Positions 84 through 57,418 of a DNA stretch of 64,000 nucleotides are shown here, piece after piece. The notes under the pieces are model-generated. The model did no database searches. It saw only the letters and a list, made by a program, of their open reading frames with translations, and was not told where the DNA came from. Origin of the DNA: an uncultured Pseudomonadota bacterium (lineage in GTDB: Bacteria > Pseudomonadota > Alphaproteobacteria > RF32 > CAG-239). The stretch lies in the NCBI GenBank assembly GCA_949295995.1, contig CASFNK010000063.1:73-64072 (forward strand). The letters are read 5' to 3'. The stretch's first letter is position 1, and the number at the start of each line of letters is the position of its first letter. The position numbers were made by a program, and so were the translations under genes.

Positions 84-1139
84 TTAGAGCAAAGAGCTCT
101 TACCAAAGTAGTCAATGCCCATAGCAGCTTTTACATCGTGCAATGTCTGAGATGCAACTTCACGCGCGCTTTCACTGCCTTTTTTGAGTTGAGCAAAAAT
201 TTCGCCGATATCTTGAGCCAATTCTTCACGCCTTTCACGGATAGGTTTGAGCTCATTTTGCAAAATTTCGTTCAAGAACTTTTTAACCGTTCCATCTCCC
301 AAACCACCTCTTTGGTAATGTGCCTTGAGTTCATCCAAATTTTGATAAGCCGGTAAAAAGGCTTGGAAATGTTCATCTTTGCAAAAAGCATCTAGGTAGG
401 TAAATACCGGATTATTTTCTGTATGACCAGGGTCTTCCACATGTAAGTGCGTTGGGTCGGTAAACATACTTTGAACTTTTTTCTTAATATCATTAGCACT
501 GTCAGCCAAATAGATACAGTTTCCTAAAGATTTGCTCATTTTGGCGGCACCGTCCAATCCCGGTAAACGAGAACATAAGCTGTTTTCAGGCAAAACAGCG
601 GTGGGCTCGACCAAAACTTCTTTATACAAAGTGTTAAATGAGCGTACAATCTCTCTGGTTTGCTCAATCATAGGCAACTGGTCTTCCCCGACGGGAACGA
701 GATTTGCCCTAAAAGCAGTAATATCGGCGGCTTGACTAATAGGATAGGTGAAAAATCCGACCGGAATGCTTTGCTTAAATCCTCTGAGTTGAATTTCATT
801 TTTAACGGTAGGATTTCTTTGCAATCTGGAAACGGTTACCAAATTCATATAATAAAAAGACAATTCGCAAAGTTCGGGAATTTGCGATTGAATGAAGATG
901 GTTGTCTTCTTAGGGTCTAATCCGCAAGCCATATAATCCAAGGCAACTTCTGAGATGTTGTTGCGAACCTTGTTGATGTCGTCGGCATTATCGGTCAAAG
1001 CCTGAGCATCGGCAATCATCACAAAAATAGTTGGATATTTTCCGCTGTTTTGCATTTCCACGCGGCGTTTGAGTGAGCCGACATAATGCCCCAAGTGCAA
1101 TCTTCCGGTAGGTCTGTCTCCGGTCAAGATAACATCCAT
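84..1139 (-). CDS. trpS: Tryptophan--tRNA ligase
   Basis: 351-aa ORF with class I aaRS signatures HLGH ([11 protein letters not shown]) and KMSKS ([10 protein letters not shown]). Length and layout are typical of TrpS. Confidence 0.95.
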
Positions 1140-43987: not shown

Positions 43988-44465
43988 GCGTTTTTTGAAA
44001 ATAGGATTAGATTTTCATGGTGTGATTAATCGCCACCCCTCTTATTTTAAAGATTTTACGGAAATGGCCACTTCCAGAGGGCATAAAATATATATTATAA
44101 CCGGAGGACCTGCCGAAAAAATAGCCTGCTTTTTGAAAGGTTGGGGAATACGTTATAATGAGCTTTTTGCCATAATGGATTACTATGCGGCAAAAGGAGA
44201 AATTAAATTTTTTCCCGATGGAAGTTTCCACGTCGATGATAAGTTGTGGAACACGGCCAAGGCCAAATTTTGCAAAAAATACCAGATAGATATTCATATT
44301 GACGATTCGGATGTTTACGGACAAAGTTTTTCCACGCCTTACTGTCAGTATGATGAGAAGAGCGGTATCTGCATGATTGATAACAAATACAAGCTCAATT
44401 TGTCATTACCGCCAGAAGAGGCTGTTATTCAATTGGAAAGAATATTATCTAAACTTGAGAATTAG
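43965..44465 (+). CDS. Hypothetical HAD-like small protein
   Basis: 166 aa. GLDFHGVI resembles a degenerate HAD motif I, and a later DDS resembles motif IV. It overlaps the preceding gene by 23 nt. Confidence 0.4.
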   Translation: MEMIMTTERFLKIGLDFHGVINRHPSYFKDFTEMATSRGHKIYIITGGPAEKIACFLKGWGIRYNELFAIMDYYAAKGEIKFFPDGSFHVDDKLWNTAKAKFCKKYQIDIHIDDSDVYGQSFSTPYCQYDEKSGICMIDNKYKLNLSLPPEEAVIQLERILSKLEN

Positions 44466-45108
44466 CCTTCTTTTTAGCTTGATAAATGTCAAATTTTTCT
44501 TCTGCCCAAGTAACATCAGACTTAACCAATCGAGCGGGATTCCCTGCATAAATCGAGTGGCTTTCGGTCAAATCTTTAGTAACAATACTTCCCGCCGCAA
44601 CAATCACATCATCGGCAATTGTATTATTTTTGAGAACCATCACTCTTTCTCCAATCCACACATGATTACCGATAGAAATTTCTTTTCCTTGGTTAATGGC
44701 ATTCATTGTGTTGATATCAATAATACTGTGAAAATCTGACACATATAGTCTGGTATCTTTAGCCGCCATAAATTCATCTCCCAGAGTAAGGGAGCTTCCT
44801 TTTTCCCATAAGCCGCATTCTGTACCTCTGAAAATACAATTTTTTCCGATTTTGATTTGAGTATTATCGGTATCAATAATAATTTTTAGGGAGCCCCAAC
44901 ACCCTTCATCAATAGAAATGGAGTTATTGGAACCGTTAATAATGAGTTCTAATTTATAGAATTGGTTATTAGAATGAATATTCAGGACATTATTGTTGCC
45001 GATAATTTTTACGGGACTACGATCATAAAAACCATTGCCCTTTATTTTGGGCGATAGAATTTGATTGTTTACACCTTTAATTTTGATGAGTTTTTTAAAG
45101 AGTTTCAT
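44449..45108 (-). CDS. Left-handed beta-helix (hexapeptide-repeat) acyl/acetyltransferase, paralog 2
   Basis: IGNHVWIGERVMVLKNNTIADDVIVAAGSIVTKD hexapeptide repeats. It is a paralog of the upstream gene. Confidence 0.75.
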   Translation of the reverse strand: MKLFKKLIKIKGVNNQILSPKIKGNGFYDRSPVKIIGNNNVLNIHSNNQFYKLELIINGSNNSISIDEGCWGSLKIIIDTDNTQIKIGKNCIFRGTECGLWEKGSSLTLGDEFMAAKDTRLYVSDFHSIIDINTMNAINQGKEISIGNHVWIGERVMVLKNNTIADDVIVAAGSIVTKDLTESHSIYAGNPARLVKSDVTWAEEKFDIYQAKKKANSQV

Positions 45109-45763
45109 GTTTTGTATCTTTCCAGTTAATCAAGGCTTGGTCATAAGCCTCTTCCACCCAGTCAATATTTGTTTTCTTGCAGCTTGCAGGGTTTCCCGCA
45201 AACATAGCATGCTCAGTAGTCAAATCTTTGGTAACAATAGCCCCGATAGCAATAATAACATTATCGCATATATGACAGTTTTTCAAAATTTTGACGGCTT
45301 CTCCGAGCCACACATGATTTCCGATAATAATTTCTTTCCCTTGGTTAAGAGGCATTTTTGATAAGGGGTCAATCACCGCGTGAAAATCGGAGCAATAAAG
45401 CCTTGTTTCTTTGGCAAACATACAGCCTTCGCCAATAATAACCTGACTGTTATTTTCTTGCAAAACAATATCGGTTCCCATAAAGCCGGTTCTAAGCCCG
45501 ACTTTGACTAAAGTATTTGATGCTCTGATATCCAAATGCAGTTTTCCGTAACAACCCGCCGGCAAAATGACGACGTTGTTATTACCCGTAATATTAATGT
45601 CTGTAAATTTCAGATAGTTAGGACCTCCGATGTCAACTTTATTATTGTTGCCATCAATTTTAAGGGAACCGTATTTCAAAAGTTCGTTGCGGCAATCTTT
45701 GGGAGTAATAAAGGAGTTATTTTCGCCCTTGATAATGAATCTCTTTTTTCGAAAGAACCTCAT
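45095..45763 (-). CDS. Left-handed beta-helix (hexapeptide-repeat) acyl/acetyltransferase, paralog 1
   Basis: IGNHVWLGEAVKILKNCHICDNVIIAIGAIVTKD. It overlaps paralog 2 by 14 nt. Confidence 0.75.
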   Translation of the reverse strand: MRFFRKKRFIIKGENNSFITPKDCRNELLKYGSLKIDGNNNKVDIGGPNYLKFTDINITGNNNVVILPAGCYGKLHLDIRASNTLVKVGLRTGFMGTDIVLQENNSQVIIGEGCMFAKETRLYCSDFHAVIDPLSKMPLNQGKEIIIGNHVWLGEAVKILKNCHICDNVIIAIGAIVTKDLTTEHAMFAGNPASCKKTNIDWVEEAYDQALINWKDTKHETL

Positions 45764-46002
45764 AAGATTTTATCTCCCAAGCATTTACAAGCATAGTCGC
45801 GATAGAGCCGCAAATGATTCTGTAAGACATTGCAATGAGACAAATTTGTTCTCTGCTTTGCAATTTCCTTAGTGTACTTATAGCAAATTCTATCCAAGGA
45901 GGGCAAGCAAGAAATATCACTTTTGATAGGGAATATGTCAAATTTTAATTCTTTCGCCCAAAGAGCTTTAAGACTTAAATAAAAATAACCTTTATCAGTC
46001 AT
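45760..46002 (-). CDS. Hypothetical Cys-rich 80-aa protein
   Basis: Its start overlaps the repressor stop (TAATG) and its stop overlaps the next start (ATGA). No motif recognised. Confidence 0.4.
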   Translation of the reverse strand: MTDKGYFYLSLKALWAKELKFDIFPIKSDISCLPSLDRICYKYTKEIAKQRTNLSHCNVLQNHLRLYRDYACKCLGDKIL

Positions 46003-46622
46003 TATTGTTCAGCCCAAACGATTCGATTAATGAGTCTGATATCATTTATTTTGACCTGTGTTTCCTGGCTTGGATTTAATATATCGCCAAAAACGATTGT
46101 GGAAGTAGTACGGTGTTTAAATTCTTTAATTAAAGGATTTTTATTATGAAGCAACACAATGACGCGGTCCCCTTTTCTGACTTCGAGATCTTTAGTTGCC
46201 ACCAAAGTACTTCCTTTACGGTAAAGAGGTTCAAAATCGGCCGTGTCCAAATTAATTGCATAGAGGTTTACGCTACTGTCCGGAAATTGAACCTTATCCC
46301 ACTTTTCCGTAAGCAGTTTAGATGTTTTGATTGAGGCATGAGTAGATAAATCTGAATAAGTAACAAAAGGAATACCATTAGGTTTAGGAGTTAAATCTTC
46401 ATCAATGAGTTGATAGAATTGCTCAAAAGAAATATTGCAAGCCTCCAAAATTTTATTAATGCTGTCAAGGGAAGGCCAGCGTTTTTTTCCATCATGACGC
46501 ATACGTTTGCTTTTGTTGAAAGTTGTAGCATCCAGACCGGCTTTTTTAGCCAAGCCCGAAGGGGATAGACCATGTAATTTTGCCAACTTATCAACAGCAT
46601 CCCAAACTTGTTCGTATTCCAT
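46002..46622 (-). CDS. CI/LexA-like repressor: HTH plus an S24-peptidase-like C-terminal domain
   Basis: N-terminal HTH (LSPSGLAKKAGLDATTFNKSKR). The C-terminal beta domain aligns by eye to the LexA/CI cleavage domain (RKGDRVIVLL...LIKEF). Confidence 0.8.
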   Translation of the reverse strand: MEYEQVWDAVDKLAKLHGLSPSGLAKKAGLDATTFNKSKRMRHDGKKRWPSLDSINKILEACNISFEQFYQLIDEDLTPKPNGIPFVTYSDLSTHASIKTSKLLTEKWDKVQFPDSSVNLYAINLDTADFEPLYRKGSTLVATKDLEVRKGDRVIVLLHNKNPLIKEFKHRTTSTIVFGDILNPSQETQVKINDIRLINRIVWAEQ

Positions 46623-46741
46623 AATTCCTCCTTATTTTCTCAGGGTTAGAGATAATATGTGATAACTATACAACAAAAAATATTAGGAATCAATTCTTTT
46701 TTATGTTGAAATTCCTACAACCTAATATATAACAATAACAA

Positions 46742-46756
46742 TTAACGATTAGTTAA
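46742..46756. promoter_or_regulatory. CtrA-type box TTAA-N7-TTAA
   Basis: TTAACGATTAGTTAA(G), 30 nt upstream of the ATG at 46786. Confidence 0.4.
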
Positions 46757-46785
46757 GATAGAATAATGAAACTGGGGGTTACTAA

Positions 46786-47121
46786 ATGCGAGAGGATTAT
46801 GAGCCTTTTGAAAACGCTGAAGAGGTTTGGTTTTGGTTTTGCGGCTGTGTTATGGCAAGAGATGGCGGATTGCGTTCCTGCAATGATTTCAAAGGAAAAA
46901 TCAGAAATTGTGAAGTGGCGGATATTTATCGCATCATAAAGAAGATGAAGCTAAACCATCAAATCACCAATCGCCACCTTAGGGTAATGGTTAAATGGGG
47001 ACAGCTTGAGTGCTCGCCCTATTACCACTATCGCGCCAAAAGAAGCGAAATCAGACTCTGGGATGAAGGCTTGCACGCACTGGAAGGCTGGCTTTTGTCT
47101 AAGGGAATAATTAGCCTATGA
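46786..47121 (+). CDS. Hypothetical small protein, first gene of the phage-like cluster (regulator candidate)
   Basis: 111 aa. It is Trp/Cys-rich at the N-terminus and basic in the middle. It overlaps the next ORF by 4 nt. Confidence 0.5.
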   Translation: MREDYEPFENAEEVWFWFCGCVMARDGGLRSCNDFKGKIRNCEVADIYRIIKKMKLNHQITNRHLRVMVKWGQLECSPYYHYRAKRSEIRLWDEGLHALEGWLLSKGIISL

Positions 47122-47531
47122 GGTTGGATGTATTTGCCCCCAAGGATTGCGAGCAATGTTACGTTGTTTTTGCCGATAACACGACTTTATGGTGGTTAAG
47201 ACTCCTCAAGCCCGGATTCAGGCATTGCTATATTTTGTTAAAGCTCCGAGGAAGCGGGCTCTGGGTGGAGCTTAATCCTTTATCTAATCAAACATCTGTT
47301 TTTGTTTATGAATATCCTGCTACATTTGATTTTGCCGATTATGTTCGTCGGAGTCGGAAAGTTATTTTATGCCCGATAGAGATAGTCCAAGCCCCGCTAA
47401 AATGTGCGCCGTTATCTTTCTTTACCTGTGTTGAATTTGTAAAGCGTGTCATAGGGTTACACGATTGTTTCACCCATACACCATGGCAGCTTTATAAAAA
47501 AATATTAAAAATTGTAGGAAAAAGTTCTTGA
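47118..47531 (+). CDS. Hypothetical protein (137 aa), second gene of the cluster
   Basis: Translationally coupled (ATGA) to the preceding ORF. No motif recognised. Confidence 0.5.
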   Translation: MRLDVFAPKDCEQCYVVFADNTTLWWLRLLKPGFRHCYILLKLRGSGLWVELNPLSNQTSVFVYEYPATFDFADYVRRSRKVILCPIEIVQAPLKCAPLSFFTCVEFVKRVIGLHDCFTHTPWQLYKKILKIVGKSS

Positions 47532-47598
47532 CAAACGAAAAAAAATTTGCTACATACAAAATTGCCACTTGCTATTAGTGTGCCCAAAACAAAGTCAG

Positions 47599-47632
47599 AT
47601 TCGCAAGACGTTAAGTCTTAGCGAATTTTTTT
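47599..47632 (+). terminator. Strong intrinsic terminator between the two small ORFs and the packaging genes
   Basis: Stem ATTCGCAAGAC/GTCTT(A)GCGAAT (11 bp, one bulge), 5-nt loop, T6. It lies about 70 nt downstream of a TTGACA hexamer at 47528. Confidence 0.7.
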
Positions 47633-47666
47633 ATATCCCAAAACCTGTAAGAAGAAAGGAGTTAAA

Positions 47667-47984
47667 ATGCACTTCAAAAAGTCCAAGACATTGAAGTCCT
47701 TAAAGAAAAATTTGCAAAAGACTCTTCCCGAGAAGGTTTCACAGGTGTTAGAGAGTTATGAAACATTTTCGGAAAGACCGATTCCCGAAGATGCCAAAGG
47801 TTTTAGTGCACACCACAGCGCCTGTAAATCGGCAGTTACCCATGCTGAAACTTTGTTAAAGCTGGCCAAGTGGACGGAAGACGGAACATCAGAAAATACA
47901 ACTTCGTCGGGCACGGAAGATATTCTAAAATTGCTTGCGGAAGCGAGAGCTGAATTGGACGGTGCGGAAGATGAACCAGATTAG
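47667..47984 (+). CDS. Hypothetical protein in the small-terminase position
   Basis: 105 aa, RBS AAAGGAG, with a 3' end overlapping the terminase start. Assigned by position only. Confidence 0.35.
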   Translation: MHFKKSKTLKSLKKNLQKTLPEKVSQVLESYETFSERPIPEDAKGFSAHHSACKSAVTHAETLLKLAKWTEDGTSENTTSSGTEDILKLLAEARAELDGAEDEPD

Positions 47985-49458
47985 TTTTTACGAATTTATT
48001 TTTATCTGGTTCAAACTGCAAAATCTGAAAGTCCCTAAACACCAACGCAAAATAGCCAAGTGGCTGAGTATGATGTGGAAAAGCGAGCAAGACCGACAAG
48101 GATTACTGATGGCATTTCGCAACTCAGGCAAATCCACCATTGTCGGCCTTTTTTGTGCCTGGGTATTGTACACCAAACCCTCAACCAGAATTTTGGTAAT
48201 GGCGGCAGACCACGCTTTAGCCAAGAAAATGGTGCGCAATGTTAAACGCATCATTGAGCAACATCCGCTAACCCTATCGCTCAAGCCCGAAAAGTTGGAG
48301 CAGTGGGCGTCCGACCAATTTACCATTAGGCGGGATATGGAGTTACGCGACCCATCAATGTTGGCCAAAGGAATAGGTGCCAATATCACGGGTCTTCGTG
48401 CTGACTTGATTATTTGTGATGACGTCGAGGTTCCCAAAAATTGTGATACGCCGCTCAAACGGATTGAGCTAAGGGAAAAACTCGAGGAGTTGGACTATAT
48501 TCTAACACCTGAAGGCATGCAGTTATACATCGGAACACCGCATACGTTTTACACCATTTACCAGGTTGACTATGATAAATCACGTCCGGAGATTGAGCCA
48601 TTTTTGCTTAATTTCAAAAAATTGGAAATACCGATTTTGGACAAGAAAAATCAAAGCAGTTGGCCTGAGCGATTTTCGGTAGAAAAAATAGCCTCTTTAA
48701 GGCAACGCTCTGGAGAAAATAAGTTTCTATCGCAAATGATGTTGCAGCCGGTTAATTTCCGAGATTGCATACTCAATCCAGAAAGATTGTGTGTTTACAA
48801 TTTGGAGCTGACCCAAACTTATGCCAATGGTCGAGAGGTGTTGCACTTGGGCGATAAAAAATTGCTTTCGGCATCTTGCTGGTGGGATCCGTCTTTTGCC
48901 TCCTCCTCGGGAGATAACAGCGTCATAGCCTGTGTATTTACCGATGAGGAGGGAAAGTTTTGGCTCCATGATGTGGAATACATTAAACTGGTAGCTCAGT
49001 CGCAAGACAATCAAGCCTCGCTTCAGTGTGAAAAGGTTGCTGATTTTATTGAACGAAATCATCTGCCGTCCATTCGGGTTGAAGCAAACGGCATTGGCAA
49101 GTTTTTACCCGGTATCTTAAAGCAGACCCTGCAAAGGCGTAAGATTCGTACGGCGGTTTTAGAAATGTATTCGTCAACCAATAAAGCCGCCCGTATTTTG
49201 GAGGCGTTTGAAGTTTTGCTGGCCGACAGAGCACTGAATGCCCACCGCCGAATATGGAACACGCCGTTTATTGAAGAAATGCGGGAGTGGAACACGGAAG
49301 GCAGCGTTCATGATGATGGTTTAGACGCCGTCGCCGGTTGTTTGTCATCTGAGCCGATACGATTCACGCAAAATTATTCGGACGGAGGGGACTATAAACG
49401 CTTCTCTTGGCAAGGAAGCTCCGGTCAGTTTAAGGCACAAACCAATTTTAACATATAA
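47971..49458 (+). CDS. Terminase large subunit
   Basis: Walker A FRNSGKST, Walker B-like ILVMAAD and LIICDDVE, and nuclease-domain acidic motifs WWDPSFA and HDDGLDA. The track start 47935 is probably too early. Confidence 0.8.
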   Translation: MNQISFYEFIFIWFKLQNLKVPKHQRKIAKWLSMMWKSEQDRQGLLMAFRNSGKSTIVGLFCAWVLYTKPSTRILVMAADHALAKKMVRNVKRIIEQHPLTLSLKPEKLEQWASDQFTIRRDMELRDPSMLAKGIGANITGLRADLIICDDVEVPKNCDTPLKRIELREKLEELDYILTPEGMQLYIGTPHTFYTIYQVDYDKSRPEIEPFLLNFKKLEIPILDKKNQSSWPERFSVEKIASLRQRSGENKFLSQMMLQPVNFRDCILNPERLCVYNLELTQTYANGREVLHLGDKKLLSASCWWDPSFASSSGDNSVIACVFTDEEGKFWLHDVEYIKLVAQSQDNQASLQCEKVADFIERNHLPSIRVEANGIGKFLPGILKQTLQRRKIRTAVLEMYSSTNKAARILEAFEVLLADRALNAHRRIWNTPFIEEMREWNTEGSVHDDGLDAVAGCLSSEPIRFTQNYSDGGDYKRFSWQGSSGQFKAQTNFNI

Positions 49459-49463
49459 GGGAG

Positions 49464-49757
49464 TTGAAGATGTTTAATGAATTGATAAACTGGATAGCAA
49501 TGATTGAGTTGCCTCTTTTTGTAGCAGTTTTTCGGATGTTGGTCAAACAAAGAAAAGAAATGGAGGAACAACTCCTAGCCACTCAAAATCATACGGAGGG
49601 CAGGGTGGATATTTGTAAAGAATCATTAGCCGATTTCAAATTACATGTCGCCAGAAACTATGTTTCCACGGGCTATCTGAAAGATGTTGAAAATCGTTTA
49701 ACCAACCACTTGTTAAGGATTGAGAAAAAACTCGATGATGTCGGGAGGTCAAGATGA
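49464..49757 (+). CDS. N-terminal TM plus coiled-coil small protein (lysis accessory candidate)
   Basis: 97 aa with one hydrophobic helix (WIAMIELPLFVAVFRML) followed by a heptad-like region. It overlaps the lysin start by 4 nt. Confidence 0.45.
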   Translation: MKMFNELINWIAMIELPLFVAVFRMLVKQRKEMEEQLLATQNHTEGRVDICKESLADFKLHVARNYVSTGYLKDVENRLTNHLLRIEKKLDDVGRSR

Positions 49758-50170
49758 GTGAAGACTTAGACACATTAGCCCGTACGATTTACGGGGAGGC
49801 ACGAGGCGAGAGCATATCCGGAATGGAAGCTGTCGCCTCAGTTGTATTAAACCGTTTGGCTTTTAGCCGAAGGAAAGGACGTTATTGGTGGGGCAATACG
49901 ATAAAAGGAATATGTCGTTGTCCCTACCAATTTTCGTGTTGGAACAAGTCTGATTCCAACTATGCTCTGATACAAAGGGTTACAGATACGGATATTATCT
50001 TTTGTATTTGCAAACGCATTGCAGGCAGAGCAATTTCGGGACTTTTGGAAGATAACACGTCGCATGCCACGCATTATCACACCAAAAGCACCAATCCTTC
50101 TTGGGCAAGGGGAAAAATACCCTGCGCCGAGATAGGGCATCATCTCTTTTACAATGATGTAGAGACATAA
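49754..50170 (+). CDS. SleB-type cell-wall hydrolase (endolysin)
   Basis: LARTIYGEARGESISGMEAVASVVLNR...PYQFSCWN is the Hydrolase_2/SleB signature. Confidence 0.8.
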   Translation: MSEDLDTLARTIYGEARGESISGMEAVASVVLNRLAFSRRKGRYWWGNTIKGICRCPYQFSCWNKSDSNYALIQRVTDTDIIFCICKRIAGRAISGLLEDNTSHATHYHTKSTNPSWARGKIPCAEIGHHLFYNDVET

Positions 50171-50530
50171 ATGATTTTTAAAACAAAAGCACCGATGACG
50201 CTGATGAAAATCATGCGTCATTTTTTTTGTGGCAGCGCGCTTTTAAGACGAAAGAGGCATGGTTCGTCTTGGGAGCGCAATTGGCGTCCGCTTTTTGGGT
50301 ATTCGGTATGTCTGACATGGGTTCTGCAAATGAGCACGATATGTTGGGTTGTCTGGATAAATCACCCACGAGCGGAAAAAATTATTATGGCATTTGTTGA
50401 AACAACATCGCTTTGGAGTATGGCTTTGGGCGTTATGGGAATTTCAGTGGTTAAAAGTTCCAACTTCACCGAGAAAAAAACTCAAACCTCAAAGTCAGCT
50501 CCAAAGTCCAATCAAACCAATATCAAATGA
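50171..50530 (+). CDS. Holin-like membrane protein
   Basis: 119 aa with two to three hydrophobic helices. The W-x-R-N-W-R-P motif before TM1 is reminiscent of the alphaproteobacterial 3-TM holin family. It sits next to the lysin. Confidence 0.45.
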   Translation: MIFKTKAPMTLMKIMRHFFCGSALLRRKRHGSSWERNWRPLFGYSVCLTWVLQMSTICWVVWINHPRAEKIIMAFVETTSLWSMALGVMGISVVKSSNFTEKKTQTSKSAPKSNQTNIK

Positions 50531-50766
50531 AAGGAAAAACAATGGGAGGAGTATTTAATAAAATATTCAGCACACCAAAAATACAACAGCCGGTAATTCC
50601 GGTTGTTGATACTCAAGTAGAAGCCCAAAACAATACGGAACAAGAAAAACAAGAAAACATAGCACGTCAACGTCGAGGACAAGAAGGAACAATTCGCACT
50701 TCTTATAATGGTATTTTGGGAGAAAAGGAAGACAATCTCAAACGTAAAAATCTCTTGGGAGAATAA
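50527..50766 (+). CDS. Small phage-type protein (79 aa; possibly starts at 50542)
   Basis: QRRGQEGTIRTSYNGILG...KRKNLLGE resembles a small conserved protein I recall seeing upstream of podovirus portal genes. Confidence 0.45.
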   Translation: MKGKTMGGVFNKIFSTPKIQQPVIPVVDTQVEAQNNTEQEKQENIARQRRGQEGTIRTSYNGILGEKEDNLKRKNLLGE

Positions 50767-50768
50767 AG

Positions 50769-52295
50769 ATGGAGCTGCAACTTGAAAAATTGGTAAGCCG
50801 TTATAAAAAGGCTGCTGAAAGAAAACAAAATTGGGAGGAGCATTGGCGAGAATGCTATGAATATGCGTTCCCGCTAAGAGAAAATGTCAGCTCTTTTGGC
50901 TACGAAGCACCGCAAGGCTCCAAGAAAAATTTGTGTTTGTTTGATGGCACGGCACCTGATGCGGTGGATCAGTTAGCCTCATCGTTACTTTCAGAATTAA
51001 CACCTCCTTGGGCTAAATGGTTTGGATTAAGACCAGGTAATGAGCTTAGTCCCATTGAACAAGAACAAGTTGCGCCGATTTTGGATAAATCCTCAGAAAT
51101 TATGCTGCAAAATTTTGAACATTCCAATTTTGCGGTAGAGGTTCACCAATGTTATTTAGATTTGGTAACAGTCGGTACGGCTTGCTTAATGTTTGAGGAG
51201 GCAGCGATTGGAGAGGCGACGGCGTTTCATTTTTATGCGGTTCCTTTGAGAGAAATTGCCATTGAAGAAAGTTCGGATGGCAAGATTGATACCACGTTTC
51301 GTTGTTCAAAACTCAATTTGGAAGGCATACGCACCCGTTTTCCCGAGGCCGAAATTCCGCCTTTCTTGCAGGAGCGATTGGAGCAAGACAGAGAGTATCA
51401 GCTCAGTGTTATAGAGGCGGTGATGCCGAGAAATTACAATGCCGGTGCTTGTGGGTATGATTATATTGCATTTGCTTGGGATGAAAACAGTGGTTATGAA
51501 GATAGTTGTATCTTAAAAGAAGGTATATTTGAAACATCACCGTTTATTAACTTTAGGTGGTTAAAAGCTCCGGGAGAAATTTATGGTCGTTCACCAGTCA
51601 TGAAAGCTCTGCCGGATATTAAAACTGCGAATAAGGTAGTGGAGTTGATTTTGAAAAATGCCTCCATTTCTGTAACTGGTATTTGGCAAGCAGATGACGA
51701 TGGCATATTAAATCCGGACAACATCAAACTCGTTCCGGGGGCAATTATCCCCAAAGCGGTAGGCTCCAAAGGTTTAACGCCGTTGAGTGCCCCCGGTAAT
51801 TTTGATGTTTCGCAACTCATACTTTCTGATTTGCGGCAAAGAATAAATCATTCATTACTGGCTGACAGATTAGCCCAAATTGCCACTCCGAATATGACCG
51901 CCACGGAAGTTTTGGAACGCTCTGCAGAAGTTGCACGCATTTTAGGAGCGACTTTTGGGCGTCTGCAATCGGAATTACTGACGCCGCTTTTAAAACGAGC
52001 CTTCCAAATTTTACGTCGTCGTGGGGATATTCCGAATTTTGACTTAGATGGGAAGATTGTTGATTTGCAGTATAAATCGCCTCTGGCTTTGGCGCAAACC
52101 CGCAAGGATATTACCAATGTCAGCGAGTGGGTGTCAATGCTTGCCACCTTTGGGACAGATGCCTTAGCGGCGGTCAATGTGGAAGAAGCCTCCAGATGGT
52201 TGGGCAAAACCCTTTGCGTCCCATCGCAGTTGATAAGGGAAACACCGCTCACCTCTGAGCCTGAAGTAGCGGAGCCAGAGAATGCAGCCGTATGA
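50769..52295 (+). CDS. Portal (head-to-tail connector) protein candidate
   Basis: 508 aa. Assigned from position after the terminase and lysis genes and from size and acidic C-terminus, which are consistent with T7/BPP-1-type connectors. No HMM was run. Confidence 0.6.
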   Translation: MELQLEKLVSRYKKAAERKQNWEEHWRECYEYAFPLRENVSSFGYEAPQGSKKNLCLFDGTAPDAVDQLASSLLSELTPPWAKWFGLRPGNELSPIEQEQVAPILDKSSEIMLQNFEHSNFAVEVHQCYLDLVTVGTACLMFEEAAIGEATAFHFYAVPLREIAIEESSDGKIDTTFRCSKLNLEGIRTRFPEAEIPPFLQERLEQDREYQLSVIEAVMPRNYNAGACGYDYIAFAWDENSGYEDSCILKEGIFETSPFINFRWLKAPGEIYGRSPVMKALPDIKTANKVVELILKNASISVTGIWQADDDGILNPDNIKLVPGAIIPKAVGSKGLTPLSAPGNFDVSQLILSDLRQRINHSLLADRLAQIATPNMTATEVLERSAEVARILGATFGRLQSELLTPLLKRAFQILRRRGDIPNFDLDGKIVDLQYKSPLALAQTRKDITNVSEWVSMLATFGTDALAAVNVEEASRWLGKTLCVPSQLIRETPLTSEPEVAEPENAAV

Positions 52296-52503
52296 TACCC
52301 GACAAATGTCGGAAGCACAGATTCGTGAAGCATTTATAAAATGCTTTTCGAGCAGGGAAGGGAGAATAGTCCTCTCTTACCTAAAACGTCTGACACAGGA
52401 GCGATGTTTGGGACCGGAAAGTTCTTCGGATGCGTTACGTCATCTGGAAGGACAAAGACATCTGGTTTCAATAATTCAAAACAAGATATCAGACGAAAAT
52501 TAA
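52282..52503 (+). CDS. Small conserved-position phage protein (73 aa)
   Basis: It overlaps the portal 3' end by 14 nt. The position matches small post-portal proteins of BPP-1-like podoviruses, as I recall them. Confidence 0.4.
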   Translation: MQPYDTRQMSEAQIREAFIKCFSSREGRIVLSYLKRLTQERCLGPESSSDALRHLEGQRHLVSIIQNKISDEN

Positions 52504-52521
52504 CCAAAGAAAGGAAAAGAC

Positions 52522-53244
52522 ATGAAAGAAAGACCAGTTGAAAACCTCAACGAAATGAATCTTGCAGCCCAGCAGAGTTCAGGTCCTTCAGCCTCGGCAC
52601 AAGGGAAACCGGCGAATTTGCCGCCCAAATTCTGGGATGAAGCCACTCAAAGTGTAAAACTGCAAGAATTGATAGATGACTATAACTCTATGGCCATGAG
52701 AGATGAAAATCTGATAGAAACGCACAACCGCAATATGCCGGAAAGCTATGATAAATATCAGATAAAAATCCCAAACGAATTGTTGGATCATGATGAAGAA
52801 TTGTTCAAACAGTTTTATGAACATGGCTTTACCAATGACCAAGCACAATTTGTCTATGACCTGGCCAATGAACGAGTCATACCGGTTTTAGACCAGTTGA
52901 CCGTAAACTTTGAGGCTCAAAAACAACTTGCCAAGCTGACCAATTATTTTGGTGGACGAGAGAGATTTGATGAAGTATCGCGTCAAATTTCGGCTTGGGC
53001 AAAACAAAATTTGAGCGGGGACGTCTATGACGCTTTAGGCTCGACGGCTGAAGGCGTAATAGCCTTGTATAAGATGATGTCGTCTAACGAACCGATGCTT
53101 AGCAAAGATAAGGGCTATGAAGGGGAGTTAAATGAACAAACCTTACGCAAGATGATGGAAGATCCGCGTTACTGGCGAGACAAAGACAGTGCTTATATCA
53201 ATAAGATTACGCGCGGATTTGAAAAACTCTACCCTGAAAAATAA
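52522..53244 (+). CDS. Scaffolding protein candidate
   Basis: 240 aa, acidic and helical, located between the portal and capsid genes. Confidence 0.45.
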   Translation: MKERPVENLNEMNLAAQQSSGPSASAQGKPANLPPKFWDEATQSVKLQELIDDYNSMAMRDENLIETHNRNMPESYDKYQIKIPNELLDHDEELFKQFYEHGFTNDQAQFVYDLANERVIPVLDQLTVNFEAQKQLAKLTNYFGGRERFDEVSRQISAWAKQNLSGDVYDALGSTAEGVIALYKMMSSNEPMLSKDKGYEGELNEQTLRKMMEDPRYWRDKDSAYINKITRGFEKLYPEK

Positions 53245-53264
53245 ACCTTTTCAGGGTTTTTTTT
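53231..53264 (+). terminator. Hairpin terminator overlapping the end of the scaffold-like gene
   Basis: Stem ACCCTGAAAA/TTTTCAGGGT followed by T8. Confidence 0.65.
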
Positions 53265-53294
53265 ATATAGGTTAATCACAAATAGGAGGAAAAT

Positions 53295-54134
53295 ATGTCA
53301 ACACAAATAACCGAATCCTTTATCAAACAATTTGAAGCCGATGTTCACTTGGCTTACCAACAAAACGGCTCAAAATTGAGAAATGCGGTTCGTACCAAAA
53401 ACAATGTCAAAGGCTCATCCACCGTCTTCCAAAAAGTCGGCAAAGGCATTGCTTCACAAAAAGCGCGCCATGGCTTGGTACCGGTAATGTCTTTGGATCA
53501 CACCCCGATTGAGTGTGAACTCCAAGACTACTACGCCGGCGATTGGGTAGATGCTTTGGATGAATTAAAGGTCAGCATTGATGAACGTCGCGTTATTGCC
53601 AATTCGGGAGCTTATGCTTTGGGACGCAAAACCGACGAATTGATTATTGATGCCTTGAGCAAAGCCCCCGAAGACAACGATGTCGGCGATTATAGTTTGG
53701 CCATGAGCAAAAAAGATATTTTGGATGCTTTTGCCAAATTGAACTCTAACGATGTTCCTGATGACGGACAACGTTTTGGTTTGGTAGGACCTTACCAATG
53801 GAATGCTTTGCTCAACATTGCCGAGTTCTCAAATTCTGATTATGCCGGCGATAATCTGCCATTTTTAAAAGGAACCGAGAGCCGTAAATGGTTAGGGATT
53901 AACTGGATTATGCATACTGGTTTGCCTTTAAGTGGCACAGAGCGTCAGTGCTTTATCTTCCACAAAACGGCAGTCGGACACGCTTGCGGACAAGATGTTC
54001 AAAGCGACATCACCTGGCATGGCGACCATGCAGCTCACTTCGTCAATAATATGATGAGCCAAGGAGCTTGCTTGATTGATCCGACCGGAGTTGTTCGGAT
54101 TAAGTGCAAAGAAGAATCTTCAATCAGCGAATAA
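53295..54134 (+). CDS. Major capsid protein candidate
   Basis: 279 aa with a strong RBS (AGGAGG), bracketed by terminators. Position and size fit. The N-terminal block resembles capsid proteins I recall from BPP-1-like podoviruses. Confidence 0.55.
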   Translation: MSTQITESFIKQFEADVHLAYQQNGSKLRNAVRTKNNVKGSSTVFQKVGKGIASQKARHGLVPVMSLDHTPIECELQDYYAGDWVDALDELKVSIDERRVIANSGAYALGRKTDELIIDALSKAPEDNDVGDYSLAMSKKDILDAFAKLNSNDVPDDGQRFGLVGPYQWNALLNIAEFSNSDYAGDNLPFLKGTESRKWLGINWIMHTGLPLSGTERQCFIFHKTAVGHACGQDVQSDITWHGDHAAHFVNNMMSQGACLIDPTGVVRIKCKEESSISE

Positions 54135-54145
54135 GGAGAAAGAAC

Positions 54146-54415
54146 ATGTCGTTTATGTCAAAAGATTTTAGTGTTATAGCCTATGCCAATGGTTTTACGC
54201 TTTGGAACTACACCACGAAAGATACATTGGATACCGTAAAAGGAGCAAATTACTTTAATGATATTGCACCTTTTGCACGTATAGGCGATATGATTTTGAC
54301 CGTAGCTAATAATCAAAGTACGATTGCACCGGCAATTTTGGCAGTAACAGCAATTGCAGACGGTGTTGTTTCCGTATCAGATTTTACGAGTAGCGCAGGC
54401 TCAGCCGCGGCATAA
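54146..54415 (+). CDS. Small head-associated protein candidate (89 aa)
   Basis: The ATG at 54146 has RBS AGGAG (track ORF 54104..54415). LWNYTTKDTLDTVKGANYFND...IGDMI resembles a small ORF commonly found after capsid genes in alphaproteobacterial phage and GTA clusters, as I recall them. Confidence 0.45.
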   Translation: MSFMSKDFSVIAYANGFTLWNYTTKDTLDTVKGANYFNDIAPFARIGDMILTVANNQSTIAPAILAVTAIADGVVSVSDFTSSAGSAAA

Positions 54416-54443
54416 AATCATAAACACATTAATAGCAAAGGCA

Positions 54444-54481
54444 GGAGAAACCTTTTAACGAAAAAGGTTTCTCCTTTTTTA
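54444..54481 (+). terminator. Strong intrinsic terminator after the capsid-region genes
   Basis: 13-bp stem AGGAGAAACCTTT/AAAGGTTTCTCCT followed by T6. Confidence 0.75.
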
Positions 54482-54496
54482 TCAACGGAGAAAATC

Positions 54497-55066
54497 ATGA
54501 GTTATACCAACATAGGAATCTGTTCCAATGCATTACTAAAAATTGGTGCGGAAGGCATCACCTCGTTTGAAGACGGCACGGCGGAAGCAGAGATAGCCTA
54601 CAGCTTGTATCCTCTGATACGCGATAGCTTGCTGTCCTCATATCCATGGAGTTTTGCCAAAGCGCAAAAAACTTTACCGAGATTAAATGATATTCCTGTT
54701 GCCGATTATCAGTATGCCTATTTATTGCCAAATGATTTTTTAAGAGTAATTTCAGCCGGCAATGGGCGTAGAGGACGCGGCATAGAATATCGTATTTATG
54801 AAAACCGACTTCATACCAATTCTGAAAATGTCAGCCTGAGTTATATCTTTCGCCCGCAAGAAAGCACTTTTCCGGCATTTTTTTGCGAAGCCTTGACAGC
54901 GAAATTGGCAGCAGAATTTTGCCTTCCGTTAACAGAAAGCACGACAAGGGCAGAGCTTTTGGAAAAATTAGCGGAAGAAACCATCAATAAAGCACGTTTG
55001 GTAGATGCGCAACAAGGCACACCGAGAACCTTAGAAGATTTTTCACTAATGGAGGCAAGATTATGA
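54497..55066 (+). CDS. Head-tail adaptor / tail tubular protein A-like candidate
   Basis: 189 aa. The N-terminal CSNALLKIGAEGITSFEDGTAEAE...YPWSFA pattern resembles podoviral adaptor proteins I recall. It overlaps the next gene by 4 nt. Confidence 0.45.
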   Translation: MSYTNIGICSNALLKIGAEGITSFEDGTAEAEIAYSLYPLIRDSLLSSYPWSFAKAQKTLPRLNDIPVADYQYAYLLPNDFLRVISAGNGRRGRGIEYRIYENRLHTNSENVSLSYIFRPQESTFPAFFCEALTAKLAAEFCLPLTESTTRAELLEKLAEETINKARLVDAQQGTPRTLEDFSLMEARL

Positions 55067-56964
55067 GTAACTTAGGTTCGGTAAAAACGAATTTTACGGC
55101 AGGACAAGTCTCTATGGATTTGCTTGGTCGCGGGGATTTACGAGTTTATGCCAATGGAGCGAGACATCTGGAAAATGTTATTATCCACCCCACCGGAGGA
55201 GTATCTCGCCGAAGAGGACTGAAGTTCATCAGTAAGGTTGAAAAGCCAACACGATTACTTCCCTTTGAATTTAATACTGAACAAATATATTTGCTGTGTT
55301 TGACGGATAATAAACTACAAGTTCTAAAAGATGATAATGTCATAGCCGAACTTGAAACTCCTTGGGTTGGAGAACAATTATGGCAGTTAAACTATACACA
55401 AAGTGCAGATACGTTTTTGATAGTTCACCCCGATGTTCCGCCCAAACAAATTACACGAAACAACAATGAGGTTTGGCAAATAGAGGATTGGGAATATTAT
55501 AGCAAGGATAATATGATATATATGCCTTATTATAATTTTTACCAAAAAAAGCCGAAGTTAAAATCAAGTGCTATTAGTGGAAACGTAACCTTAACGGCAG
55601 ATGCAGACGTATGGTTGCCCACACATGTAGGATCTTATATTTCATACCAAAAAGGGCTAGCACAAATTACAGAAATTACCGATACAAAAGTAGCAAAGGC
55701 AAAAGTAGTTAAAAATTTTAGTACATATGCTGCGACTAATGATTGGTCGGAATCTGCGTTTTCGGAAGCCAGAGGTTGGCCAGTATCGGTAACCTTTCAT
55801 CAAAATCGAATGGTTATCGGAGGATCCAGAGATTTACCCAATAGATTATGGCTATCACAATCATCAGATTTATTTAATTTTGATTTGGGTGAAGCTTTGG
55901 ATGACGAGGCAATTGAATTTGGCATTTTATCTGATCAGGTAAATGCAATAAAGGCGGTAGTCTCATCAAGACACTTATTAGTATTTACGACCGGAGCAGA
56001 ATGGATGGTAACGGGCGAGCCGTTGACACCGGAGAAGATACAGCTTAAACGTCAAACCAATGTTGGTATTTATTCGGATAAAATTTTGGCACCTCAACAA
56101 ATTGATGGAGCCACGGTATTTGTTTCCAGAAGCGGCAAACAATTACGAGAATTTCTCTATACAGATGTTGAGCAAGCCTATCAAGCCAAGGATTTAACGA
56201 TTCTGTCCAACGATATTATTCAATCTCCGCAAGATATAGGTTTTGACCAAGACGAGTGTGTCTTATACATAGTTTTGGAAGATGGTAGTATTTCATGTTT
56301 AACGACTTATCGTACCGAAGAAGTAACCGCTTGGAGTAAACTGACGACAGCAGGAAAATTTTTATCCGTAGCGGTAATCGGAAATGACATCTATTTTTGT
56401 GTTCAACGTTCCAACGGGTATTTTTTAGAAAAGTTAGCAGATGATTATTATTCAGACTGCGCCATACGTTTAACATCGGAGATTGCACAAAGGGACTGGG
56501 GTGGACTTGACAATCTGGAAGGAGAAAAGGTTGTTGTGTTGGCTAATGGTTTTAGTTTAGGGGAATTTCAAGTTGAAGAGGGAGAGATCCATCTTTTAGA
56601 TGAAGCCACCGAAATTATGGTTGGAATACCTTATGAACACTGGATAGAACCGCTGCCTTATATGGTAGAAAGCGAGCGACCATATTCTCCAAAGGCATTG
56701 AGGGTAATACATGCTCGGTTTCGTATTATCAACAGTAAATCATTATGTATTGATATTGGCGGTGGATATTTTCAATATCCGCTAAAAAGAATACATAAGG
56801 ACCAAATTTTTGATGCGCCGCCGATGACCTATTCCGGAGACGTACAAGTAAGATCACTGGGTTGGATAAGAGACATGAATAAACCAATGTGGAGCATAAG
56901 AAGCAATGAGCCGTTGGCTTTTACGCTTTTATCCGCAGTAGTAGAAATAAAACTTAAAGAATAA
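55063..56964 (+). CDS. Tail tubular protein B / nozzle-like candidate
   Basis: 633 aa. FTAGQVSMDLLGRGDLRVYANGARHLENVIIHPTGGVSRRRG resembles the N-terminus of podoviral nozzle proteins I recall. Confidence 0.45.
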   Translation: MSNLGSVKTNFTAGQVSMDLLGRGDLRVYANGARHLENVIIHPTGGVSRRRGLKFISKVEKPTRLLPFEFNTEQIYLLCLTDNKLQVLKDDNVIAELETPWVGEQLWQLNYTQSADTFLIVHPDVPPKQITRNNNEVWQIEDWEYYSKDNMIYMPYYNFYQKKPKLKSSAISGNVTLTADADVWLPTHVGSYISYQKGLAQITEITDTKVAKAKVVKNFSTYAATNDWSESAFSEARGWPVSVTFHQNRMVIGGSRDLPNRLWLSQSSDLFNFDLGEALDDEAIEFGILSDQVNAIKAVVSSRHLLVFTTGAEWMVTGEPLTPEKIQLKRQTNVGIYSDKILAPQQIDGATVFVSRSGKQLREFLYTDVEQAYQAKDLTILSNDIIQSPQDIGFDQDECVLYIVLEDGSISCLTTYRTEEVTAWSKLTTAGKFLSVAVIGNDIYFCVQRSNGYFLEKLADDYYSDCAIRLTSEIAQRDWGGLDNLEGEKVVVLANGFSLGEFQVEEGEIHLLDEATEIMVGIPYEHWIEPLPYMVESERPYSPKALRVIHARFRIINSKSLCIDIGGGYFQYPLKRIHKDQIFDAPPMTYSGDVQVRSLGWIRDMNKPMWSIRSNEPLAFTLLSAVVEIKLKE

Positions 56965-56975
56965 AAGGAGGAACC

Positions 56976-57374
56976 ATGGGAGAATTAATGACTGCTCAAA
57001 ATGCAAGCAAGAGTACAAATATTATTCAAGAGGCGTATAATGTGGTAGAGGATAATAAAAATCTTCGAGATAATTATGAGTTGTCTCAAAATAAACTTTC
57101 GCATGATCAGTTGGCCAATCGCGAGAAGAAAAAAAATATATTAGAAGAAAACTTGGCAAAACGCAGAGCCAGAGTTGCCGCAATGGGAATGAGCGGAGAC
57201 GGTTCAGCATTGGCCGAGCAACAAAGAGAGGCTTATGAAGGATATAAGGATATAGCTGAAGATGACTATAATTATTACCACCAATATAAGACAAACAGAG
57301 TAAATACCAAATATAAAATTCGCAGTAATGCGGTCAATGGTATTTTTAACGCAACACAAAGTTTGTTAAAATAA
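56976..57374 (+). CDS. Hypothetical coiled-coil protein, last gene of the cluster
   Basis: 132 aa with RBS AAGGAGG, followed by a terminator. Confidence 0.5.
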   Translation: MGELMTAQNASKSTNIIQEAYNVVEDNKNLRDNYELSQNKLSHDQLANREKKKNILEENLAKRRARVAAMGMSGDGSALAEQQREAYEGYKDIAEDDYNYYHQYKTNRVNTKYKIRSNAVNGIFNATQSLLK

Positions 57375-57379
57375 GCGAA

Positions 57380-57418
57380 AACTCCGCCGGTTTAAACGGC
57401 GGAGTTAGCTATTTTTTT
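57380..57418 (+). terminator. Terminator closing the phage-like cluster
   Basis: Stem AACTCCGCCG/CGGCGGAGTT, then a T7 run 5 nt downstream. Confidence 0.7.

Follow-up and report, generated by a model that had tools for sequence, protein, structure and literature searches.

The DNA examined here, referred to as the window, is a stretch of 64,000 nucleotides from an uncultured alphaproteobacterium of the RF32 lineage (GenBank assembly GCA_949295995.1, contig CASFNK010000063.1, positions 73 to 64,072 of the forward strand). Within it, a block of about 11.4 kb (window 46002-57416) is derived from a phage. The left end of this block is occupied by a control region, which consists of a repressor gene, two small open reading frames (ORFs) termed ORF111 and ORF137, a late promoter, a leader of about 68 nt and an intrinsic terminator, t1, followed by the late genes. 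Comparison of related loci indicates that this layout, with genes in regulator position, promoter, leader, terminator and late genes, is a real and deeply conserved control module. A first-pass annotation, which was made from the letters alone, had proposed late control in the style of antitermination. The module is conserved and read-through is required, but no tie of the two proteins to Q, GafY/GafZ or sigma region 4 was found. The features are as follows.

46002-46622, minus strand: CI/LexA-like repressor, helix-turn-helix (HTH) and degenerate S24 domain (Pfam HTH_26, Peptidase_S24; PHROG 4)
46684-46717, no strand: operator-like inverted repeat TAGGAATCAATTC...GAAATTCCTA, over the -35 of the early promoter
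46706-46733, plus strand: predicted early promoter for ORF111-ORF137, TTGAAA, 16-nt spacer, TATAAC
46742-46757, no strand: CtrA-type box (TTAA-N7-TTAA), TTAAC-N6-TTAAG, just 3' of the early -10
46786-47121, plus strand: ORF111, four-helix protein (by model) of an orphan family with 1,798 members
47118-47531, plus strand: ORF137, alpha/beta protein (by model) of an orphan family, 2,514 representatives after clustering at 50% identity
47515-47556, plus strand: predicted late promoter, TAGGAAAAAGTTC box or A-tract, -35 TTGACA (47528-47533), TG (47548-47549), -10 TACATA (47551-47556)
47564-47594, plus strand: initially transcribed element, putative hairpin GCCACU/UGCUAUU/AGUG-U-GC (47564-47583), TGTG, then CCAAAACAAAG
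47599-47632, plus strand: intrinsic terminator t1, bulged stem of 11 bp, loop of 5 nt, tract of seven Ts
47667-47984, plus strand: first late gene, 105 aa, small-terminase position (PHROG 31793)
47935-49458, plus strand: large terminase gene, overlapping the first late gene
53231-53265, plus strand: internal terminator at the junction of the scaffold-position gene and the capsid gene, about 30 nt before the capsid ATG
54443-54481, plus strand: internal terminator between the capsid and 103-aa genes and tail tubular gene A, about 15 nt before the next ATG
57380-57416, plus strand: strong terminator closing the cluster (-21 kcal/mol)

Late promoter, leader and terminators

A search with ORF137 yielded 63 loci from genomes and 80 loci from viral catalogues. 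The gut lineage comprises 19 loci and the window, and the alignment of promoter and leader was made with 18 loci. The coordinates of ORF111 and ORF137 and their ATGA overlap (47118-47121), by which the two genes are translationally coupled, had been given correctly in the first-pass annotation, as had the location of the second stop codon inside a TTGACA hexamer. This stop, TGA, is at 47529-47531, and in the 19 related gut-alphaproteobacterial loci as well as in the window it lies within an invariant -35 box, TCTTGAC(A). The spacer of 17 nt between -35 and -10 is variable and A/T-rich and is followed by TGnTAnnnn. The -10 hexamer TACATA, which had been judged weak, is present after this spacer and carries an extended TG and a conserved TA. 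The housekeeping -10 consensus of alphaproteobacteria (GCTANAWC in Caulobacter) needs no final T; if this consensus holds, GCTACATA is near consensus rather than weak.

The sequence GTAGGAAAAA..TCTTGAC is invariant in the 18 aligned loci, third codon positions of ORF137 included, and so is the T/TA of the -10. The 18-nt motif from TAGGAA to TTGAC has its sole exact match in the 1.6-Mb genome at the late promoter. Downstream of the -10, about 10 variable nt are followed by the invariant CACTTGCT-nnn-AGTGT, by YCC, an A-rich stretch and the variable terminator. The sequence CACTTGCTnnnAGTGT is likewise invariant and occurs in its exact form only at the leader site (window and gut-lineage loci); NAGTGT (47576-47581) is invariant in all 18 loci. 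Since synonymous sites are at or beyond saturation between these loci (dS 0.8 to the nearest relative), the invariant non-coding letters of promoter and leader are, as the alignment indicates, under selection.

The leader could fold into a hairpin of six pairs (47564-47569 with 47577-47580 and 47582-47583), inside which TAGTGT (47576-47581), a hexamer of the NANNNT type, is situated. These positions are paired in 108 of 108 cells of the 18 sequences, and the two outer pairs covary through G-U (AU 9, GU 7, GC 2; UA 8, UG 4, CG 6). The covariation score was reached by one of 500 shuffles, and slid controls collapsed. This provides modest evidence that the leader forms a hairpin in the nascent RNA, and by analogy it leans toward RNA recognition of the N/nut kind. 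Two other designs were considered and rejected. A leader peptide would need a ribosome-binding site and an ATG, which the leader lacks. A classical attenuator with mutually exclusive hairpins does not fit either, the leader hairpin having no overlap with the terminator and the terminator stems varying freely.

Promoter, leader and terminator could also constitute the gene of a trans-acting small RNA of about 68 nt, directed perhaps against repressor or lysis mRNAs, with the late genes being expressed by occasional read-through from the early promoter. The anatomy would be typical, with its own promoter, a conserved 5' part and a terminator hairpin with U-tract. The search of Rfam gave no family; the best match, to an Aggregatibacter small RNA, reached 22 bits against a threshold of 51.4 bits, which is chance level, and a look for complementary targets in the window found none. 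In other lineages the leader is followed by as many as four terminators in tandem, which would suit a gate better, and expression of the late genes would be left unexplained, so that we regard a small-RNA gene as very unlikely.

The hairpin of 11 bp with a T-run that the first-pass annotation had placed at 47599-47632 is present, albeit bulged and with seven Ts, and is kept in 20 of 20 gut-lineage loci. It reads ATTCGCAAGAC / GTTAA / GTCTTAGCGAAT (47599-47626; 11 pairs, one bulge), with the Ts at 47626-47632 and an RNAfold energy of about -11 kcal/mol; a consensus scanner missed it solely owing to the bulge. Throughout the gut lineage a hairpin with T7-T9 follows 60-90 nt past the ORF137 stop. 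The stems are unrelated, with at least eight sequences, for example ATTCGCAAGAC, GGCCTCC, GTTCGTAAAAC, GCTCCG and GCCTGAAGAAC, and have energies of -7.5 to -17 kcal/mol; the place is conserved, the sequence is not, and the structures have the properties of intrinsic terminators. From the T-tract of t1 to the ATG of the first late gene (47667), which is preceded by the ribosome-binding site AAGGAG, there are 34 nt, and about 25-60 nt across the gut-lineage loci.

Further terminators had been noticed at 53231 and 54444; both are real (53231 and 54443). The gut lineage has two or three such conserved terminators inside the cluster. The one before the capsid gene is conserved in the nearer relatives, and at the junction before tail tubular gene A, 15 of 17 gut-lineage loci have a hairpin with T-run, the stems of which differ. 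No conserved promoter was detected after t1 or after the internal terminators, and there is no room for one. Because no promoter fits after t1 and because more conserved terminators lie inside the operon, polymerase must, to judge from the sequences, read through terminators for expression of the late block of about 10 kb. This agrees with the earlier view that read-through control would have to overcome the internal terminators.

Plain attenuation for the sake of stoichiometry is an unlikely purpose of the terminators, because one of them precedes the gene for the capsid protein, of which more copies are needed than of any other product. The layout is explained by a polymerase which resists terminators, and the hairpins may at the same time be elements of RNA stability. 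The capsid and 103-aa genes (53231-54481) are bracketed by two conserved hairpin terminators. Given a terminator-resistant polymerase, these bracketing hairpins could stabilise a processed segment of capsid mRNA.

Another explanation would do without a dedicated antiterminator. ORF137, with or without ORF111, would be a classical activator or anti-repressor of the late or the early promoter, and leaky terminators would merely set transcript ratios or serve as RNA-stability hairpins. The universal presence of ORF137 would agree with this, as would the finding that loci lacking ORF111 have a late promoter without terminators, the TAGGAA/A-tract box directly upstream of the late -35, and the hairpins which bracket the capsid segment; phage T7 has a partly efficient terminator after its capsid gene. 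Three to four successive terminators with T7-T8 tracts would, however, allow very little read-through to the tail genes, and one of them stands upstream of the gene for the most abundant product, the capsid. The late promoter is near consensus, and a conserved transcribed box would not be needed by an activator which binds upstream. Activation with leaky terminators is thus considered rather unlikely.

Distribution of the module and properties of its two proteins

The order of repressor (minus strand), ORF111 and ORF137 (plus strand) and structural genes was kept throughout the fetched loci. The 19 gut-lineage loci share the gene order of the window, including the YhdP neighbour where the upstream flank had been fetched. 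In many distant loci TTGAC coincides with the ORF137 stop or lies close to it, and a good -10 follows after 17 nt (TTGAC-17-TAnnnn). Their leader box reads CAACG(C/A).. ... TG(C/T)(G/A)(C/T)C(C), and its TGYRYC part starts 49-52 nt from the beginning of TTGAC in most of them, compared with 51 nt in the window; one to four intrinsic terminators follow immediately after the box. A strict motif, GCnAGnAnTGYRnC, matched few loci as written and was given up; the looser bipartite form CAACG/CACTTG ... TGYRYCC fits better. Because promoter, box and terminators recur beyond the gut lineage, the design is old and independent of the gene which comes next, be it a small terminase, a small MG... protein or the portal.

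The number of terminators after the leader varies. Three to four in tandem are present about 40-130 nt past the ORF137 stop in loci L132, L138, L141 and L142 (viral-catalogue entries that come from isolate genomes), which is a much heavier gate than the single terminator of the window. Locus L147, from a cultured relative (Azospirillum brasilense GCA_007828645.1, VITF01000007.1 174345-186770) contains the repressor, homologues of ORF111 and ORF137, a small MG... gene, portal, a Bbp19-like gene and scaffold, and then a GGDEF/EAL gene. No capsid or tail gene was called in the fetched stretch, and the cluster there is therefore truncated or split.

Loci of the Ferrovibrio and Geminicoccus types have no ORF111, and the repressor is directly divergent from ORF137. 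Among 133 scorable loci, a terminator after ORF137 was present in 50 of the 109 with ORF111 versus 2 of the 24 without, both of the latter being doubtful. Intergenic terminators within the cluster numbered 1.84 on average where ORF111 was present (n = 67) versus 0.27 where it was absent (n = 11). Since terminators track the presence of ORF111, their co-distribution points to ORF111 as a putative read-through factor. The suggestion of a regulator with two subunits, which had been made in the first reading of the sequence, has to be modified: ORF137 is universal in the element family and is present even where ORF111 is absent, whereas ORF111 is an add-on which tracks the terminators. This points to ORF137 as a universal partner of ORF111, be it an activator, a loader or something else.

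An even sample of the class (301 genomes) contained ORF137 in 56 genomes, i.e., roughly a fifth, mostly as a single copy, and ORF111 in 44. In the matches listed which share a contig with ORF137, ORF111 is directly upstream of it. Neither gene was found in 50,697 deposited phage genomes (tblastn), and the DNA of the control region had no match in deposited phage genomes. Ratios of nonsynonymous to synonymous substitutions (dN/dS), determined with the nearest relative, were 0.02 for ORF111 and 0.04 for ORF137; both genes are under strong purifying selection.

The two ORFs had been described as matching nothing recognisable. Scans of 46 members of the ORF111 family and 67 members of the ORF137 family gave no Pfam or NCBIfam match even at E ≤ 10; there was no PHROG match, and sequence-profile searches of the PDB remained without match. 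For ORF111, the AlphaFold (AF2) model has four helices and a mean pLDDT (predicted local distance difference test) of 85. Foldseek comparisons of this model with PDB and BFVD gave no match at E ≤ 0.001. The highest template modelling (TM) scores in the PDB were those of the Q21 antitermination complexes 6p18_P (0.47) and 6jnx_P (0.45), which are not significant. The comparison with Q and sigma region 4 by remote homology and structure, which the first-pass annotation had recommended, thus gave nothing significant (Q21, TM 0.45-0.47, E about 4-6.5). Neither ORF111 nor ORF137 can be assigned to the Q family by sequence homology, and the fold match is insignificant. A reading of ORF111 as sigma region 4 was not supported by the fold search: no sigma factor or sigma-like chain was among the 46 PDB matches listed.

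The ORF137 family has the invariant residues F18, L27, R35, H36, C37, C104, V105, E106, K109, P122 and L125, and H115 is nearly invariant. This pattern suggests a metal or catalytic site together with a basic surface. The AF2 model (pLDDT 85) is of the alpha/beta type, with H36 at the start of a strand and C104 at the start of a helix, an order which recalls permuted papain-like enzymes. Foldseek gave no PDB match at E ≤ 0.001; every TMq was ≤ 0.30 among the 50 matches listed, which contained no sigma factor or sigma-like chain and only one peptidase (M48, rank 6, TMq 0.23). Assignment to the permuted papain-like proteins (NlpC/P60, LRAT, YiiX) was rejected, as the order of motifs fits but the fold search does not; the 67 family members had no match in Pfam. 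Longer homologues of ORF137 (P0312, P0339, P0298 and others) were considered as Rosetta-stone fusions and discarded, since they look like artefacts in which frameshift or read-through has joined adjacent genes. The same holds, by their look, for apparent fusions of the 79-aa MG... gene to ORF137 in several database proteins.

These properties raise the question whether the two proteins are transcription factors at all. They could be, e.g., a small enzyme (permuted papain-like or metal-dependent) and a protein for assembly, anti-defence or exclusion, and read-through could be brought about by host factors or by the leader RNA itself, like the put RNA in HK022. The invariant His-Cys ... Cys-x-Glu of ORF137, with a Cys at a helix N-terminus, is in agreement with such a role; no DNA- or RNA-binding domain can be recognised in either protein, loci without a terminator after ORF137 have kept both genes, and the leader hairpin covaries. 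On the other hand, no papain, NlpC/P60 or other enzyme fold was returned by Foldseek for the ORF137 model, and in more than 100 loci the pair is always in the regulator slot between repressor and late promoter. In addition, the leader before the terminator has about 35 nt, far shorter than put RNAs, and the terminators track ORF111. Roles outside transcription therefore appear quite unlikely for the pair.

Repressor, early control region and gene content

The repressor gene is transcribed divergently from ORF111, and it adjoins ORF111/ORF137 in nearly all loci which are long enough to show it. The catalytic Ser of the S24 domain is gone in the window, where TAD-F is found in place of the GDSM of relatives and of host LexA; the Lys position is retained. 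Homologues from Ferrovibrio and Azospirillum have kept GDSM, and the Geminicoccus homologue has lost both catalytic residues (Ser and Lys). The inverted repeat over the early -35 is near-invariant in gut-lineage loci, and the early promoter is conserved in the alignment of 20 loci. The CtrA-type box, which is kept in all gut-lineage loci, sits where other lineages (Micavibrio-type) have a LexA box, GAAC-N7-GAAC. The lexA gene of the host (contig 26, L150 about 830-880, minus strand) keeps a canonical GAAC-N7-GAAC box, GAACTAAAGTAGAAC. In the gut lineage the early switch seems to have been rewired from SOS to cell-cycle input. Because the catalytic Ser was lost and the LexA box was replaced by a CtrA-type box, induction in this lineage probably does not proceed by RecA-stimulated self-cleavage of the repressor.

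A related TAGGAAAAAGTTC box abuts the late -35, and boxes of the TAGGAA type are also present at the corresponding promoters in distant lineages. The repressor probably binds to these boxes; the A-tract next to the late promoter could just as well function as an UP element. Boxes of the form TAGGAA-N5-TC occur as an inverted pair at the early promoter (46684-46717) and as a single copy at the late -35 (47515-47527). An extra copy is present at 54513-54525, just inside tail tubular gene A and past the 54443 terminator; the whole window has four matches against 2.2 expected, and this copy may be due to chance.

The host assembly represents a genome of 1.6 Mb with 97.5% completeness, and DNA runs containing the locus are mostly labelled as chicken-gut, gut or manure metagenome. 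The block is a chromosomally fixed, domesticated cluster of T7-like head, packaging, lysis and short-tail genes (about 46.0-57.4 kb), and it lies among ordinary genes of the chromosome. A YhdP/AsmA-like gene and two hexapeptide-repeat genes flank it on one side; the other side has genes for an esterase-like protein and a solute-binding protein. In addition to the CI/LexA-like repressor (minus strand), ORF111, ORF137 and the 105-aa ORF in small-terminase position, it encodes a large terminase and a portal (Head-tail_con), both of the T7 type, the proteins of a lysis cassette, among them a SleB-type hydrolase and a holin-like protein, the capsid (Phage_capsid_2) and tail tubular proteins A and B; a gene in scaffold position is present as well. 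Genes for integrase, replication, RNA polymerase, internal core or fibre were not seen in the block. Searches of the literature yielded no published account of this T7-like element or its switch.

Upstream of the portal gene there is an ORF of 79 aa (50527-50766, plus strand), whose family begins with MGG(I/V)F...S.P and ends with ...LLGE; an internal Met at codon 6 is the probable true start. Its homologue comes straight after ORF137 in many lineages. The hexapeptide-repeat (LbH) genes are a tandem pair (window 44449-45763, minus strand) downstream of the repressor and an 80-aa ORF. A synteny scan with tblastn showed both genes in L002 and L005, one copy in L004 and L006, and none in L001, L003 and L007-L020; they look like variable cargo rather than core parts.

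Proposed antitermination model and known systems

A model of the locus as an antitermination switch can be put forward. The CI/LexA-like repressor would keep the divergent early promoter off. Upon its relief, the coupled ORF111 and ORF137 would be made, the early transcript stopping at t1. The late promoter, near consensus and of the housekeeping type, if it fires as predicted, would alone give an RNA of about 68 nt, from about 47563 to about 47631, which ends at t1. ORF111, alone or with ORF137, would engage RNA polymerase at the conserved initially transcribed element (hairpin / CACTTGCT...AGTGTRYCC). The polymerase would thereby become resistant to terminators and, assuming that these work in vivo, pass t1 and the terminators at 53.2 and 54.4 kb up to the strong terminator at 57.4 kb. 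The likely antiterminator, and the best candidate for it at the locus, is ORF111, with or without ORF137; ORF137 might be a co-factor or an activator, possibly metal-binding. The reading is supported by the position of the genes, as ORF111/ORF137 immediately upstream of the late promoter occupy the place of Q in lambda. For the switch as a whole we have slightly more confidence than doubt.

Several results weigh against antitermination by these proteins. No significant match in sequence or fold connects either of them with families of antiterminators, sigma factors or DNA/RNA-binding proteins, and the similarity of ORF111 to the Q21 chains has E values of about 4-6.5 and a Foldseek probability of 0.13-0.15. 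The invariant His/Cys/Glu set of ORF137 would suit an enzyme or a metal site no less than a regulator. The association of ORF111 with terminators is confounded by G+C content, loci without ORF111 being mostly G+C-rich; on the ORF137 tree there are six changes of the ORF111 state, which amount to three to six independent contrasts, and the sign test is not significant. Loci of the Micavibrio type possess both genes and lead straight into the next gene, so that ORF137 is followed by neither promoter nor terminator. A promoter of this kind is found there upstream of ORF111 (TAGGAA box, CTTGAC, LexA box GAAC-N7-GAAC, TGYGTC), and terminators occur further inside these clusters. Because Micavibrio-type loci keep both proteins without a terminator of the t1 type, the role of the proteins is not tied to t1 alone. 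At lambda pR', the pause involves TNYG about 10 nt downstream of a -10-like element (PMC9191641). In the gut lineage, with the start position as predicted, there is neither TNYG nor conservation 10 nt past NAGTGT, and TGYG is found inside the leader box at about +16 to +19; a sigma-dependent pause fits the leader only in part. Finally, no RNA runs carrying the window locus were found. The runs for L147, a locus without promoter or terminator after ORF137, contained only 9-15% of the sampled words, and no usable RNA runs were found for the isolate group of L132, which has triple terminators.

A more far-reaching proposal, which we put forward tentatively and consider somewhat improbable, is that ORF111 founds a new family of processive antiterminators (about 1,800 members, Alphaproteobacteria) with a fold distantly like that of Q21/BrrG or a wholly new one. 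It would load at a promoter-proximal hairpin of the nascent RNA and not at a DNA site in the promoter spacer; ORF137 would be its universal partner, possibly zinc-binding and of new fold, and together with the repressor they would form the switch of an undescribed, podovirus-derived system similar to gene transfer agents (GTAs). Should antitermination be true, this would be the third independent phage-derived particle system in Alphaproteobacteria with terminator read-through as its gate, the other two being the RcGTA/CcGTA type and BaGTA. It would support the proposal of antitermination as a general safety lock of GTAs, their expression being lethal to the producer cell. Two large orphan families, comprising about 1,800 and over 2,500 sequence clusters, would obtain a testable function. 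The cis element is compact (about 120 bp, with promoter, 20-nt box and terminator) and could be transferred to reporter strains; by this route the otherwise silent T7-like cluster might be switched on, and one could ask whether particles are formed and what their cargo is.

The lambdoid Q proteins (Q-lambda, Q21, Q82), which act at pR'/qut before tR', resemble the locus in several respects. The regulator gene is directly upstream of a strong late promoter of the housekeeping type; a short leader ends at an intrinsic terminator before genes for lysis, packaging and head, and further terminators have to be bypassed. Both have a conserved initially transcribed element including a NANNNT hexamer, in both a repressor controls the supply of regulator, and the highest TM matches of ORF111 in the PDB, although not significant, are Q21 complexes. 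In contrast to Q, there is no sequence similarity, ORF111 has 111 aa compared with 145 or 147 residues of the Q21 chains, and the locus possesses a second, universal partner, ORF137. The element here is a covarying hairpin, which is closer to nut boxB of the N system, TNYG is not at lambda spacing from the -10-like hexamer, and the host is an alphaproteobacterium with T7-like late genes.

With lambda N/nut (boxA-boxB) the locus shares a short conserved RNA hairpin near the promoter, followed by a conserved single-stranded stretch, and a small basic phage protein which would be available for binding of the hairpin. N is an unfolded, arginine-rich peptide, whereas ORF111 is, according to its model, a folded four-helix protein. 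No sequence like boxA was recognised at the locus, and in distant lineages its element keeps a constant distance from the promoter, a constraint that is not required in N systems.

In Caulobacter crescentus, GafZ, together with GafY and IHF, antiterminates the gene transfer agent (PMC11150451). There, too, two small proteins govern a phage-derived particle cluster of about 14 kb in an alphaproteobacterium, and one of them is a processive antiterminator which is loaded at the cluster promoter and bypasses a terminator close to the beginning of the cluster as well as a foreign terminator in reporters (PMC11150451). Different from the present locus, the GafZ site in CcGTA is between -35 and -10, and the terminator (three 150-bp repeats) comes after the first gene. 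For GafY and GafZ, HTH proteins of a sigma-like kind are predicted; no sigma-like fold was found among the PDB matches listed for ORF111. The structural genes of CcGTA are of the RcGTA type and siphovirus-like, those of the window T7-like.

BrrG of the Bartonella GTA was an orphan which was recognised only by AlphaFold similarity to Q21; it is a processive antiterminator which serves the capsid operon, and its action depends on a conserved NANNNT element downstream of the promoter (bioRxiv 10.1101/2024.11.20.624540). BrrG is encoded elsewhere, at the ror locus, and the leader on which it acts is long, unlike the candidate described here, which abuts its target and has a leader of about 35 nt. 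On balance, it is slightly more likely than not that the locus works like lambda Q / pR' / tR', or like GafZ / BrrG, with proteins that are unrelated or undetectably related to these and with a different cis element.

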